From the IMG/VR virus record IMGVR_UViG_3300005758_000044, positions 64,001 through 107,737 of that record: a DNA stretch of 43,737 nucleotides; one strand, written 5' to 3'. Below are positions 499 through 17,200 of this stretch, piece by piece; position 1 is the first letter of the stretch; each line of letters starts with the position of its first letter. The notes under the pieces were generated by a model. It saw nothing but the letters and a program-made list of their open reading frames with translations. It was not told where the DNA came from and searched no databases. Made by a program: the position numbers and the translations under genes. The DNA comes from a virus (Duplodnaviria > Heunggongvirae > Uroviricota > Caudoviricetes).

Positions 499-552
499 GC
501 CAGTGAAAATCCTTCGAAGGTTTCTGCCTCATGAGCAGAATAGCTGGCACCA
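499..552 (+). ncRNA. 54-nt T-arm-less tRNA-like element with CAU anticodon arm
   Basis: GCCAGT/GCTGGC acceptor + A-CCA, CC-TTCGAA-GG hairpin, TTCTGC-CTCATGA-GCAGAA arm. Confidence 0.5.
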
Positions 553-559
553 ATTTCAT

Positions 560-633
560 TGCCCGTTAGTATAAAAGTAGAATGACACACTGACACTGTG
601 TAGAAGTTGGAGCGTTACCAACACGGGCAACCA
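560..633 (+). tRNA. tRNA-Val(GAC), T-loop AGCGTTA
   Basis: TGCCCGT/ACGGGCA acceptor, ACACA-CTGACAC-TGTGT, CCA end. Confidence 0.85.
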
Positions 634-800
634 TTTTCTAATTAGAGATGTCGGTAAATATATTTAACTGTAAAGTTGATATAACGCATCTAATGAATCA
701 GTAAATAACTTAAAGCGTTTGGAAGGTGGGAACTCATAATTCCGGTGGACAGTTATAACGTTTGGCTAGTCCATCTATTTATTGAAGAAATAAATTTAAT

Positions 801-878
801 GCATCCGTAGCTAAATTGGAATAAAGCAACTCGGTTCTAACGAGAAGATTGTAGGTTCAAGTCCTGCCGGATGTGCCA
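801..878 (+). tRNA. tRNA-Arg(TCT)
   Basis: Cloverleaf, CTCG-GTTCTAA-CGAG, GTTCAAGT T-loop, CCA. Confidence 0.85.
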
Positions 879-933
879 TTTTTTACAGTAATTTGAATCG
901 GAATGATATTTATTTTAGACATTTCATCACATT

Positions 934-1293
934 ATGAAGAAAAAAATATTTGAACATATCGGTGGACATAAGTTTAAGTTGAAAGAATCTTCTTTGCCAA
1001 CGTATGACACCACGATCAATCATCCTGAAACAGATGAAGAAATTGCTGTTACGGTACAGTATGAGTATACTCCTGCTGAAAGAGGTTCTAGAGAACGAGG
1101 AACTGGATTACAGCTTGAGCCTGACTACCCAGCTAGTGTAGAAATTTATTCTGTAGTGGACGATCAGGGTACAGAATATGAACTTTCCAAGTCCGAATTA
1201 GAACGTATTGAAAACGAAATTTTCGACATGATTAAAGATCGTGCTGATGATTATGACTATGACCGTTATGACTATGACCGTTACGATCAGTAA
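934..1293 (+). CDS. Acidic hypothetical phage protein with YDYDR tandem tail
   Basis: 119-aa ORF, ATATTTAT motif upstream. Confidence 0.75.
   Translation: MKKKIFEHIGGHKFKLKESSLPTYDTTINHPETDEEIAVTVQYEYTPAERGSRERGTGLQLEPDYPASVEIYSVVDDQGTEYELSKSELERIENEIFDMIKDRADDYDYDRYDYDRYDQ
1251..1286 (+). repeat. 15-bp tandem repeat TTATGACTATGACCG x2 plus partial copy
   Basis: Direct reading; encodes YDYDR repeats. Confidence 0.85.
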
Positions 1294-1309
1294 TGTTTTG
1301 TAAAATAAT

Positions 1310-1387
1310 GCTGCCGTAGCTCAATTGGATTAGAGCGTCTGCCTACGAAGCAGAAGGTTGCAGGTTCGACTCCTGCCGGCAGTACCA
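1310..1387 (+). tRNA. tRNA-Arg(ACG)
   Basis: TCTGC-CTACGAA-GCAGA, canonical D/T arms, CCA. Confidence 0.95.
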
Positions 1388-1393
1388 TAAGTT

Positions 1394-1981
1394 ATGTTAT
1401 TTAGTATAGTTGTTGTTGCGTATCAGCGATACACTCAAATTCCATGTTTGATTCATTCATTGATGGCTCAAACATTTGATGACTTTGAAGTAATTGTTTT
1501 ACACGATGGTGAAGACAACAAACACGCTGAGATAATGTCACCATTCTTACATGATGGTAGAATTCGATATGGTCAAACAAATGTTCGTTACAACGATTAT
1601 GGACACTCGTTGAGAAATATGGGAATTGAACTTGCCAAGGGTGAATTCATAATAAACACAAACGATGACAATTACTATGTTCCTATTTGGCTTGAGGAAA
1701 TGAACAGAGTGATTCAGGAAAAGCCACAGTGCAATTTTGTTTATTACGACATGGTATTAAGTCATAAAAACATTCTCAACCACAACAAAAAAGATTATGG
1801 ATTGTTAATTCCTCAAATTCAACATTCTATGATCGATGTCGGGCAGTATGCCGTTAAAAAAGACATCATTAAAAACCATCGATTTACAAGCAAAGCAGAC
1901 TCGGATGGTGATTTGATTATGGAAATGAAAGCCAAATTGATTCCCGAGTACATTGACAAGGTTTTGTTTGTTCACAATTAA
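1394..1981 (+). CDS. Glycosyltransferase family 2 (GT-A fold)
   Basis: FSIVVVAY start, FEVIVLHDG, RNMGIELAKGEFI, NDDN DxD-like motif. Confidence 0.85.
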   Translation: MLFSIVVVAYQRYTQIPCLIHSLMAQTFDDFEVIVLHDGEDNKHAEIMSPFLHDGRIRYGQTNVRYNDYGHSLRNMGIELAKGEFIINTNDDNYYVPIWLEEMNRVIQEKPQCNFVYYDMVLSHKNILNHNKKDYGLLIPQIQHSMIDVGQYAVKKDIIKNHRFTSKADSDGDLIMEMKAKLIPEYIDKVLFVHN

Positions 1982-1988
1982 AAATCGG

Positions 1989-2016
1989 TTGACATCGTGG
2001 GACCTTATGGTATGAT
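1989..2016 (+). promoter_or_regulatory. sigma70-like promoter
   Basis: TTGACA-16nt-TATGAT with TG upstream of -10. Confidence 0.7.
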
Positions 2017-2103
2017 GATGACAGATGAAGGGAATAACCTCGGTTGTGACTGACCGTAGCATCTTTAAAACTCAAATAGTCACACTTTCTTTGAAAATTT
2101 AAT

Positions 2104-2179
2104 GGGCGTGTAACTCAACTGGATAGAGTGCAAGTCTTCGAAACTTGAAATTTCGGTTCGAATCCGGACATGCCTACCA
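2104..2179 (+). tRNA. tRNA-Arg(TCG)
   Basis: CAAGT-CTTCGAA-ACTTG, GTTCGAATCC, CCA. Confidence 0.9.
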
Positions 2180-2181
2180 TT

Positions 2182-15284: not shown

Positions 15285-15494
15285 ATGAAAACATACAAGT
15301 TAACAGAGCTTAAAGCCGGAGAAAAAGGGCGAATTGTTGAAGTTAACATTGATAGTCAACGGTTAAAAGAACTTGGCATTATTCGTGGTGCAATTATAAC
15401 CGTAGTTACAAACAATTTAATTTGTATGATTTGTAATACCCGAATTTGTTTGGGTAAACCGATGACAGACAATATCATCGTTGAAAAGATGTGA
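15285..15494 (+). CDS. feoA: FeoA-family (SH3-like) protein
   Basis: LTELKAGEKGRIVEV...RLKELGIIRGAII...TRICLG...IIVE. Confidence 0.8.
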   Translation: MKTYKLTELKAGEKGRIVEVNIDSQRLKELGIIRGAIITVVTNNLICMICNTRICLGKPMTDNIIVEKM

Positions 15495-15619
15495 TCGTTG
15501 GTGTATAGAATTATAGCACGCTACACGTTGAGAGGGTAGAGGAGATCGAAGTTGACGGGTTAGACATTATCAGGAACGTTTCGTGAAATCCCCGTATATT
15601 CGCAAGTCACGGTCATCCA
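15492..15619 (+). ncRNA. Leu(GAG)-derived tRNA-like RNA with ~55-nt insert in the T-arm
   Basis: TGATCGT/ACGGTCA + T-CCA, GTGT/GCAC D-stem, CTAC..TTGAGAG..GTAG, insert ACGGG/CCCGT. Confidence 0.55.
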
Positions 15620-15717
15620 ATTTCACAAACACCCGATTGGAGGATTCCTTAAGGGTTTGGGCGCATGTGCCGCACAGCTTTTTAGCGTATAATAGCACGG
15701 TTTGTGAATGTTTTCTT

Positions 15718-15746
15718 TTGACAAACACTATATATTGGTGTATGTT
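15718..15746 (+). promoter_or_regulatory. sigma70-like promoter
   Basis: TTGACA-17-TATGTT with TG. Confidence 0.7.
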
Positions 15747-15754
15747 GTTTTTAT

Positions 15755-15829
15755 GGGCTGGTGGTGCTAATGGTAACACAACTCGTTTGCACCGAGTGGT
15801 TAGGAGTTCGATTCTCCTCCGGTCCACCA
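15755..15829 (+). tRNA. tRNA-Ala(TGC), second copy
   Basis: ACTCG-TTTGCAC-CGAGT, G3.U70, CCA. Confidence 0.9.
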
Positions 15830-15839
15830 ATTTTAGAGC

Positions 15840-15913
15840 GCGGGTATGATGTAGTGGTAGCCTGCAACCTTGCCAAGGTCGATGTGCCGGTTCGATTCCG
15901 GCTACCCGCTCCA
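15840..15913 (+). tRNA. tRNA-Gly(GCC)
   Basis: ACC-TTGCCAA-GGT, U73-CCA. Confidence 0.9.
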
Positions 15914-15922
15914 AACTTAACA

Positions 15923-15950
15923 AGGCCTGTATTACACAGGCCTTTTTTTT
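15923..15950 (+). terminator. Intrinsic terminator
   Basis: AGGCCTGT/ACAGGCCT + T-run. Confidence 0.85.
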
Positions 15951-15962
15951 ATGTAAAATGTT

Positions 15963-16709
15963 ATGACATGCGATGTTGGCGCAGTAGCGATAGTTTATCA
16001 AAAACAAGTACAGTCTAGTATCGAAATGATAAAATCATTTCGACAAAACAATCAATCATCTACGATAGTGTTATGTACGGATGGATTGGTTGATGAGATT
16101 GACGATATATGTAAAGAATATTCGTGTTCAGCGGTGATCAATCACAATCAATTGGGTTATCCAGCCAGTCATGATATTGAAATTCCAATCGAATATTTTC
16201 GTAGGTTATTATTGGCGTCACAATTGATATCAGAAAAATACTTCATAAACCTTGAGCCAGATTGTTTGGTAACAGGAAAAATAACGATACCATATGAGGA
16301 TTATGATTTCATCATCAACCAAGATCCAACTGTACAGTGGTTATATTACTTTGAGGGAAAAGACATTCTACGATCTTCAATCATTGATAATGTTTTGAAC
16401 TACTACAAAAATAACAACGTTTATAGCGAACAGCTATTTGACAAAATAATGGGTGGGGGAGGCGACATTTACAACAAGAATATAACGGACAAAATATTAC
16501 ATGAATGGCAATTGTTTAAAACCCGTGCATACGATTTTAAACATTTATGTGAATCTGCACAAAAAGTATGGTATCATGACATGATTGTATCGTTTCAGGT
16601 CCCCTTTCATTGCAAATCAAGATACTGGGGTATAGATTATGCAGAACGAACAAAGGATTTGAATTTGTCAGACAGAATTTTTCATAGGTGTAAGCAGTTT
16701 TACACATAA
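15963..16709 (+). CDS. Putative glycosyltransferase-like protein
   Basis: IVLCTDG, FINLEPDCL (DxD-like), MGGGG, final IFH. Confidence 0.5.
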   Translation: MTCDVGAVAIVYQKQVQSSIEMIKSFRQNNQSSTIVLCTDGLVDEIDDICKEYSCSAVINHNQLGYPASHDIEIPIEYFRRLLLASQLISEKYFINLEPDCLVTGKITIPYEDYDFIINQDPTVQWLYYFEGKDILRSSIIDNVLNYYKNNNVYSEQLFDKIMGGGGDIYNKNITDKILHEWQLFKTRAYDFKHLCESAQKVWYHDMIVSFQVPFHCKSRYWGIDYAERTKDLNLSDRIFHRCKQFYT

Positions 16710-16730
16710 AATTCAATGGAATGAACGATC

Positions 16731-16758
16731 TTGACATCACACAACAAAAGTGTAAGAT
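16731..16758 (+). promoter_or_regulatory. sigma70-like promoter for tmRNA
   Basis: TTGACA-16-TAAGAT with TG. Confidence 0.7.
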
Positions 16759-16816
16759 AGAATTTGAATACGATCCAAATATGTGATAATAGTTATTAAC
16801 GGTTCTTTTACAATAT

Positions 16817-17200
16817 GGGCGTGTACTGGTTTCGATTCAAAAATGTAGGTGTGCTAGGCACGTAGAGGACGATAGTTGGCCTCTTTAATCATCTATCAAA
16901 ATATAACTGCTAACAAGAAGAGCAAAGTAGTAAGCTACGACTTCACTTCCCGTGAGGCCGTTGCTCTCGCAGCCTAAGTTGCTGCACATCTTTTATGATG
17001 ATGTCTGATAATTGTAAAAGATGATAAACATCAGGCTAGATAACAATTTGTTTGGGATTGTTGTTGATCTTCTACCAGACACCATCAACATAAAGTTTGT
17101 TGTTTTAGATTTGTGTTGATGTAACAAAAAACAACTAAGCGTGTAGTCTGGTATACTTTAAGTTTTGAAGACGCGAGTTCGACTCTCGCCACGTCCACCA
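16817..17200 (+). ncRNA. ssrA: tmRNA; tag ANKKSKVVSYDFTSREAVALAA (16909-16977)
   Basis: GGGCGTG..TGGTTTCGA 5' end, G3.U70, GCGAG-TTCGACT-CTCGC T-arm, ACCA end, ATAACT-GCT resume context, LAA end. Confidence 0.95.

Follow-up and report, generated by a model that had tools for sequence, protein, structure and literature searches.

Ribonuclease P (RNase P) RNA is regarded as a housekeeping ribozyme of cells, and phage T4 relies on the RNase P of its host. T4 also encodes two small stable RNAs that are not transfer RNAs (tRNAs), rnaC (species 1) and rnaD (species 2), which lie on the tRNA strand 1-6 nucleotides (nt) from tRNA-Arg (downstream), with rnaC carrying a canonical T-arm and an acceptor-like strand at its 3' end and rnaD ending in ...CACC followed by A. 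The functions of rnaC and rnaD are still unknown (PMC9697503). The large structured RNAs GOLLD and ROOL are found near tRNA islands and tRNAs sometimes lie within the GOLLD linker (PMC12286853). Here we describe an RNA island of ~17 kb in a large uncultured phage, located at positions 499-17200 of a 43.7-kb window, by which we mean the whole stretch of DNA that was analysed, the end portion of a 107.7-kb IMG/VR virus record (IMGVR_UViG_3300005758_000044). The units of the island are on the + strand and comprise 37 tRNAs, a transfer-messenger RNA (tmRNA), GOLLD, a 313-nt homologue of RNase P RNA and six further conserved structured RNAs, here called E1, E7, E8, E10, E11 and E12.

The genes downstream of the island match baseplate and head families of phages and the CheckV completeness of the record is 31%, which together indicate that the record is a fragment of a large phage. 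The comparison set consisted of a syntenic relative (contigs L119/L120) and three partially syntenic ones. Like rnaC and rnaD, non-tRNA structured RNAs of the island stand a few nt from tRNAs on the same strand and are without a promoter of their own. The scale is different however, with two such RNAs beside 8 tRNAs in T4 against at least six in the island, which also has GOLLD, the tmRNA and 37 tRNAs, and in contrast to the T4 stretch inspected, where no RNase P RNA gene is annotated, the island contains a homologue. An nhmmer search for homologs of rnaC and rnaD gave no match at E ≤ 1 in the window or in four relatives, and megablast of the phages in GenBank returned the similarity of a tRNA-Pro to Bacillus phages and nothing else.

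A reduced RNase P RNA homologue

The 313-nt sequence at 14875-15187 (+ strand) displays by eye a closing helix, a hairpin, a AGAGGAAGUUCG block and a AACAGAAC..GGCUA block, the last two of which could form P4 with a bulged U. Pattern scans on the two core blocks led to the viral contigs L009, L063, L117 and L119, although the first loose core pattern gave mostly chance matches, with L009 and L063 the only real ones among the matches listed, and a scan of metagenome contigs added 46 more loci. The resulting family, which we have seen here only in viral and metagenome contigs, has at least 38 distinct members; 38 of 233-431 nt were aligned, the variation in length being due to a variable insert at the position of the specificity domain. 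Two core patterns run against representative genomes of 185,579 prokaryote species yielded 0 matches and then 8 chance matches lacking nhmmer similarity, and no family member was among them. As the first core block belonged to the search pattern, the fact that all members share it is in part a consequence of how they were found.

The family can be folded into P1, P2, P3, a P4 pseudoknot with a bulged U, P5 and a P15-like helix with GGU, together with J18/2 and J2/4 motifs. With P4 crossing P2 as a pseudoknot, 93.2% of the cells in the core alignment (38 sequences) are paired, compared with 31-49% in controls in which the partner strand was slid, and the observed values were reached in 0/500 shuffles. 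Both sides change in 28/39 pairs of the core. In P2 all pairs are compensatory (6/6), P4 is 99.3% paired with compensation in each of its 3/3 variable pairs, and P5, the P15-like helix and the inner hairpin of the latter covary as well. Set against the reference core of RNase P, with CR-I as GAGGAAAGUCC, CR-IV/J18-2 as AGAUGAAUG and CR-V as ACAGAA..GGCUUA, the window carries AGAGGAAGUUCG, GAGAGAAAUG and AACAGAACAGCGGCUA in the respective places, and in L167 Infernal matches these blocks to the model. The GGU within GGUUGG is invariant (38/38 sequences) and is placed by Infernal at CGGGUa of the model, on the 3' side of L15.

Members of the family from other contigs are matched by Rfam models of RNase P RNA (clan CL00002). 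The bacterial model RF00010 scores L167 at 47.4 bits and L168 at 45.3 bits (E 1e-11 to 1e-13) and the archaeal model RF00373 scores L165, L140 and L164 at 27-41 bits, while the Infernal alignment of L167 assigns P1-P5, P7, P15-17, the L15 GGGU, P18, J18/2 and J2/4. Judged on its sequence and on the pairing conserved in its relatives, the RNA at 14875-15187 is truly homologous to RNase P RNA; it has kept the catalytic domain and the CCA-binding loop and has lost nearly all of the specificity domain. An earlier note on this DNA, made from the sequence alone, had called an RNase P RNA at this position, and that call stands as regards homology, through the covariation of the family and the Rfam matches of relatives, but not as regards direct detection by Rfam.

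The genomic context of the family also involves tRNAs, which are present at the Rfam gathering score in 16 of the 20 family loci scanned. Several relatives have tRNAs on both sides of the RNase P-like RNA, one ending a few bases before it and another starting a few bases after it, and in L124, L129, L130 and L167 the 5' end of the second tRNA follows ~5 nt after the closing helix of the ribozyme, so that cleavage of this downstream tRNA by RNase P would set the 3' end of the ribozyme itself.

A different divergent RNase P-like RNA was noticed in GC-rich viral contigs of 103-140 kb, at 8928-9231 of L007 (RF00010, 28.4 bits, E=4e-5) and also in L107 and L118, and RNase P RNAs may thus occur in more than one phage lineage.

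Conserved structured RNAs, tRNAs and their junctions

The six conserved non-tRNA RNAs measure 85-170 nt and match no Rfam family. E1 (2182-2330, + strand) has a 10-base-pair (bp) terminal stem, a T-arm-like hairpin (5 bp with a 7-nt loop) that abuts the 3' strand and the tail AACA followed by AUUU. Its counterpart in L120 shows 88% identity and 2 of the 41 predicted pairs are compensatory; the folding z-score is -2.2 and the terminal stem has p=0.007. E7 (7698-7864, + strand) is shaped like a tRNA. Its 5' part consists of an acceptor-like stem of 7 bp, then two unpaired bases and a D-like stem of 3 bp and, in the place of the anticodon arm, an irregular arm of ~78 nt; its 3' part adds a further hairpin and a T-like arm of 5 bp that stacks directly on the acceptor to give 12 bp, and ends with the tail CACA followed by AUUU. 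Across the five family members, all from phage contigs, 11 of the 47 predicted pairs of E7 are compensatory. The regions of E1 and E7 gave no match to the tRNA model RF00005 even at E ≤ 1, and neither qualifies as a cloverleaf at 29 bits. E8 (12674-12778, + strand) has an 11-bp terminal helix, the tail CACA followed by UUUU, the best folding z-score of the listed elements (-4.9) and 4 compensatory changes against L120 in 29 predicted pairs. Pattern scans for further homologs of E1 and E8 returned only the already known L119.

The remaining three RNAs lie close to the RNase P-like RNA. E10 (15622-15708, + strand) is a three-helix RNA with a 9-bp terminal stem (p=0.044), for which nine sequences give 12 compensatory pairs out of 19 predicted, including 9/9 of the terminal stem; in many related contigs it is placed after the RNase P-like RNA, and its distant relatives have a CCA end followed by AUUU. 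E11 (15495-15619, + strand) has a 6-bp terminal stem and the tail AUCCA followed by AUUU (five sequences, 28 predicted pairs, 4 compensatory) and E12 (15190-15280, + strand) is located directly 3' of the RNase P-like RNA (three sequences, 26 predicted pairs, 2 compensatory). Neither E11 nor E12 was among the elements listed in the earlier note. At least three kinds of non-tRNA RNA therefore have tRNA-like ends, namely E7 through its 12-bp stack and E11 and the distant E10 relatives through their CCA ends. Between E12 and E11 a 70-amino-acid open reading frame (ORF) with a FeoA domain is inserted (15282-15494, + strand; Pfam PF04023, 48.5 bits). In L151 and L155 both RNAs are present and the ORF is absent from this place, and the idea that E12 is a riboswitch for the FeoA gene was rejected as relatives keep E12 without this gene.

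The tRNA complement was assembled from several searches. ARAGORN reports 25 tRNAs and the tmRNA in the window by default and 32 tRNAs at a 90% threshold, and Rfam at gathering score finds 24 tRNAs, GOLLD and the tmRNA, with four more tRNAs under permissive settings. A scan for CCA followed by A0-2TTT uncovered the 3' ends of the added units, and five more CCA-ended cloverleaf units with odd T-loops were recognised at 6950-7021, 8523-8597, 12497-12582, 12881-12974 and 13750-13825, the T-loops of such added units including GGCAGCA, UGCGAAA and UGCAAGU. The total is 37 tRNAs, of which 25 are canonical and 12, about a third, non-canonical; this count leaves out a mini unit of 54 nt at 499-552. GOLLD (RF02032) is matched over its full model at 4006-4468 with 212.3 bits against a gathering threshold of 150, its 5' half at 3441-4005 is kept in L120 with 88% identity across 3441-4473, and tRNA-Thr(UGU) is nested inside it at 4072-4143. 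The tmRNA (RF00023, 16817-17200) scores 161.7 bits against a threshold of 47 and ARAGORN predicts a tag that ends in ALAA.

The ends of these units are highly uniform. Among 37 free-standing units (36 tRNA-like and the tmRNA) the CCA is encoded in 37/37, the trailer has A(+1) in 26/37 and U(+2 to +4) in 29-33/37, and the leader has U(-1) in 31/37, A(-2) in 30/37 and U(-4) in 30/37. The array has 34 copies of CCA followed by A0-2TTT on its + strand, compared with 9 on the - strand. The ~37 tRNAs, the GOLLD-like RNA, the tmRNA and the shared A(A)TTT spacer described in the earlier note are thus all borne out.

Probable release from common precursors and rival explanations

Units of the island follow each other at 3-12 nt, all on one strand, and a promoter and terminator scan found none that separates a tRNA from the element adjoining it. 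Promoter-like sites of the TTGACA type were instead found by consensus scan as pattern matches before each cluster (1989, 3406, 6243, 7230, 11737, 13174, 15718 and 16731), and intrinsic terminators 3' of 8597 and 15913. Bacterial RNase P acts optimally on U(-1)/G(+1), an encoded RCCA that pairs with the L15 GGU and a 12-bp stack of acceptor and T-stem, and it also processes tmRNA and some phage small RNAs (PMC10731613). The junction of the island, ...N-CCA / A-U-U-U ... U-A-U / G..., fits this preferred context.

On these grounds we consider it probable, though far from certain, that the tRNA-processing machinery frees both the tRNAs of the island and its other RNAs from shared precursors, with a contribution of the phage mini-RNase P. 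About nine promoter-like sites would drive polycistronic RNA operons on the + strand, and the co-transcribed precursors would be cut at the stereotyped junctions to yield tRNAs and other RNAs in the way that T4 releases rnaC and rnaD, the products presumably being stable and functional. The A/U-rich single-stranded trailer, which we take to resemble sites cut by RNase E-type endonucleases, could offer such a cleavage site, and the mini-RNase P, probably with the RnpA protein of the host, may add to or replace the capacity for 5' cleavage. As it has no reader of the tRNA elbow, it would be expected to tolerate tRNAs with odd elbows and RNAs built on a tRNA scaffold.

A number of results weigh against this reading, some of them touching the transcription units and the elements and others the ribozyme. 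The promoter calls are consensus matches, with 76 found in comparison with 55 +/- 8 in shuffles, and the ACA tail is not strictly kept, since relatives of E7 end in ACA or AAA and the relative of E8 in GAAA. The array holds 4.2 inverted repeats per kb (at least 9 nt, within 330 nt), no more than the 5.0 per kb of the coding remainder, and in per-gap shuffles the terminal stem is significant only for 2182-2330, 7034-7133 and 15622-15708. Terminal stems were therefore rejected as stand-alone evidence, being not enriched above chance, and it is comparison that must decide which elements are real. The earlier note had claimed at least a dozen stem-closed orphan RNAs and listed ten; the stems exist, and comparison with relatives found conservation with covariation for four (2182-2330, 7698-7864, 12674-12778 and 15622-15708, that is E1, E7, E8 and E10), but the other six are without comparative support and a library of at least a dozen is an overstatement. 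These six are E2 (2340-2446), E3 (2630-2752), E4 (6484-6595), E5 (7034-7133), E6 (7602-7693) and E9 (13514-13741), all on the + strand; none of them has a homologue in the four related phages or at another place in this genome, and their folding z-scores are weak. E2 (z=-2.8, terminal stem p=0.21) and E6 (z=-1.4) are retained as candidates, E4 and E9 are unsupported, and E5 has an 11-bp terminal stem (p=0.006) and is without a homologue. E3 is doubtful (z=-0.5, one weak match in L153) and, as it holds the relic of a canonical T-arm, is likely a decayed tRNA. The elements also contain slightly more T-loop-like GTTC[GCA]A words than expected (6 compared with 2.1, p about 0.02), so that some of the other elements may be decayed tRNAs too. 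These observations would suit an ordinary tRNA island, in which most intervening segments are decayed tRNAs, spacers or cis-acting hairpins that influence in which order or how efficiently the precursors are processed, and stem-loops adjoining tRNAs do modulate the order of RNase P cleavage (PMC10731613). We nevertheless regard an ordinary island as rather unlikely, given that E1, E7, E8 and E10-E12 are conserved at 70-90% while neighbouring genes of the phages are only 66-71% identical, that compensatory changes support folds of several helices and that E7 and E10 recur at equivalent places in distant contigs. The 10-11-bp terminal inverted repeats of E1, E3 and E5 and the cassette-like presence and absence of E2-E6 between relatives could also recall small mobile insertions resembling miniature inverted-repeat transposable elements (MITEs), a highly improbable origin which we rejected because each element occurs just once in the 107.7-kb record; target-site duplications are not seen either, and the conserved elements covary as RNA and not as DNA repeats.

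As to the ribozyme, the Rfam RNase P models gave no match in the window or the whole record even at E ≤ 10, and the 27-47 bits of the relatives are well under the gathering thresholds of 84-100. Positions 280-590 of L167 submitted alone also gave no match while its whole locus reached 47 bits, a discrepancy that we attributed to filters or truncation of the ends and because of which negative Rfam results on short slices need care. The specificity domain (P8-P14, CR-II, CR-III), which normally reads the T-loop/D-loop elbow of the tRNA, is missing, with 110 model positions reduced to 2 nt in L167. This loss, together with scores below the Rfam threshold, makes the RNA a divergent homologue and not a standard member, and it also makes cleavage of real substrates uncertain. 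No RnpA (PF00825) was found in this contig and four related ones, which are fragments of 9-31% completeness. Loss of the specificity domain, scores far under the Rfam thresholds and the lack of a phage RnpA in five incomplete fragments are likewise what might be seen if the RNA were a decoy or regulator, for example one that titrates host RnpA or pre-tRNA 3' ends in order to reprogramme the maturation of host tRNAs. Such a role appears unlikely to us, as the parts that are strictly kept belong to the active site and to substrate binding (P4 with its bulged U, J3/4, J2/4, J18/2 and the L15 GGU), and as both the type T RNase P RNAs of Pyrobaculum, which have no specificity domain, and isolated catalytic domains of bacterial RNase P RNA remain active.

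Release of tRNAs and other RNAs by a shared machinery is therefore the reading we prefer. It agrees with the earlier proposal of tRNAs as punctuation and of a phage-supplied RNase P as far as the single strand, the short spacers, the RNase P-type junctions, the tRNA-like ends and the RNase P homologue are concerned, and departs from it in the size of the library (6/10 unsupported) and in the lack of an RnpA gene in the fragments examined. A bolder version, which we put forward tentatively as a possibility that is on balance doubtful, is that RNA maturation in the phage is self-contained, with an RNase P ribozyme at its core that would work independently of the elbow; by cutting at one uniform junction code it would free phage RNA production from the specificity of host RNase P. 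The RNAs released would then include tRNAs with odd elbows, cargo RNAs on tRNA scaffolds and, in those relatives where tRNAs flank it, the ribozyme itself. If true, a self-contained system could possibly resist host defences aimed at canonical tRNA features.

Island layout and comparison with known systems

All RNA units described below are on the + strand. The island opens at 499-878 with three tRNA-like units that are all CCA-ended, the mini unit at 499-552, tRNA-Val(GAC) at 560-633 and tRNA-Arg(UCU) at 801-878, followed by tRNA-Arg(ACG) at 1310-1387. A sigma-70-like promoter with the form TTGACA-16-TATGAT and a TG element, identified by consensus match only, lies at 1989-2016 before the first RNA operon, which contains tRNA-Arg(UCG) at 2104-2179 (found, like tRNA-Arg(ACG), by ARAGORN and Rfam). 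Next come tRNA-Thr(GGU) and tRNA-Cys within 2454-2608, and the stretch 2987-3383 has a further tRNA-Cys (2987-3062), a conserved 240-nt spacer and a tRNA with the anticodon CUA (3308-3383). This last tRNA is intact, is labelled Pyl by ARAGORN and as an amber suppressor hints at TAG recoding or conditional readthrough in the phage. The GOLLD unit spans 3406-4473, with a promoter at 3406-3434 and GOLLD from about 3441.

The operon at 6243-7133 consists of a promoter (6243-6271), tRNA-Glu (6404-6478), E4, a wcaG-like segment (6599-6705), a tRNA-Met-like unit (6859-6941), the non-canonical tRNA(CAU) at 6950-7021 and E5. The match to the wcaG RNA motif is sub-threshold (35.2 bits, gathering 42) and the segment is weakly conserved in L120. 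A promoter at 7230-7257 precedes tRNA-Met (7422-7498) and tRNA-Ile(UAU) (7505-7598), and 7871-8625 contains tRNA-Leu(CAA), an ORF (8026-8421), tRNA-Leu(UAA) (8426-8512), the non-canonical tRNA-Thr(CGU) at 8523-8597 and an intrinsic terminator (8603-8625).

The dense array at 11737-13157 starts with a promoter (11737-11764) and a leader and continues with Val, Pro and three Leu tRNAs, the odd tRNA at 12497-12582, Ala, E8, Ser, the non-canonical Ser-like unit at 12881-12974 and two more Ser tRNAs. Conservation of the leader at 11765-12072 (about 11816-11953) extends to L119, L141 and L155, and a paralogue of it lies upstream in this phage's own genome (G000:C1:57747-57904). The unit at 12497-12582 has a CCA end, a canonical T-arm and an oversized anticodon loop, AUUUAAAAC; at 80% ARAGORN calls it tRNA-??? 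with a 2-base anticodon, and it could be an ochre or frameshift suppressor. The cluster at 13174-14490 has a promoter (13174-13202), Ser, Gly and Gln tRNAs (13247-13501), E9, the non-canonical tRNA-Pro at 13750-13825, tRNA-like units at 13876-13951 and 13957-14030 and a tRNA-Gln(CUG)-like unit at 14417-14490. Inside E9 a 27-nt word (13595-13621) is 96% identical to the sequence directly 5' of the RNase P-like RNA in L009 and L119, which suggests that a rearrangement moved the ribozyme gene in this phage. Downstream of E10 a unit at 15718-15944 comprises a promoter (15718-15746), tRNA-Ala (15755-15829), tRNA-Gly (15840-15913) and a terminator (15922-15944), and at 16731-17200 the tmRNA has a promoter at 16731-16758. 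The ORF at 15963-16709 (248 amino acids) has no relatives among the viral contigs searched.

Genes for sugar modification are located between or just 3' of the units of the island, at 1394-1981, 4585-5280, 9940-10569 (- strand), 10628-11560 and 21065-22360. They include two glycosyltransferases, one of the GT2 family at 1394-1981 and a second at 21065-22360, as well as FkbM-type and other methyltransferases and an NAD-dependent epimerase.

In terms of known RNase P RNAs, the phage family resembles the bacterial class A (RF00010) in the pseudoknot topology of P1-P2-P3-P4, the bulged U in P4 and the L15 GGU, and in its CR-I-like AGAGGAAGUUCG, CR-V-like AACAGAAC..GGCUA and J18/2-like GAGAnAAAUG motifs. 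It differs from class A in scoring 0-47 bits against a gathering threshold of 100, in having after P5/P7 a family-specific conserved segment that flanks a variable hairpin and in residing inside tRNA arrays of viral and metagenome contigs. Like the type T RNase P RNA of Pyrobaculum, it has a size of about 190-390 nt and is without P10-P14; a short member in L127 has roughly 215 nt. No report of a phage-encoded RNase P RNA was found in the literature searched, from which most subscription journals were missing. A family of tiny RNase P RNAs reduced to the catalytic domain and encoded within the tRNA arrays of phages would be the first from viruses, would provide a naturally minimal ribozyme on which structure and mechanism could be studied and would lead to a hypothesis that links the loss of the elbow-reading domain to the non-canonical elbows of phage tRNAs.

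The non-tRNA RNAs have several partial counterparts. Like GOLLD and ROOL they are structured RNAs next to tRNA islands, and the GOLLD of this island itself carries a tRNA-Thr (4072-4143), but E1, E7, E8 and E10-E12 are small and have tRNA-like ends while GOLLD here appears to have its own promoter. YrlA (RF02553) RNAs also mimic tRNAs and are encoded near phage tRNA genes; in YrlA, however, the Ro-binding stem is built from the termini and the part that resembles a tRNA is at the apex, whereas the termini of the island RNAs form an acceptor-like stem, and the sole YrlA match in the window is sub-threshold (22.8 bits) and overlaps a true tRNA. Engineered tRNA scaffolds for the expression of recombinant RNA, in which cells process and stabilise the cargo, were reportedly developed by Ponchon and Dardel. 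E7 is similar to them in that the acceptor, D-like and T-like arms are kept and a long foreign hairpin replaces the anticodon arm, and unlike them it is natural, is conserved in at least five phage contigs and ends in NACA instead of CCA.

The conserved RNAs that are tRNA-shaped or CCA-tailed make the 50-year-old puzzle of T4 rnaC and rnaD one case of a broader class, and they supply several new families supported by covariation in which to seek function; that such RNAs are decoys for defence nucleases that target tRNAs is speculation. The T4 cluster and the position of GOLLD and ROOL near tRNA islands mean that the arrangement is already known in kind. What is new here is the scale, together with several RNA families that end like tRNAs and are backed by covariation and a family of RNase P RNAs that is carried by phages and lacks the specificity domain.

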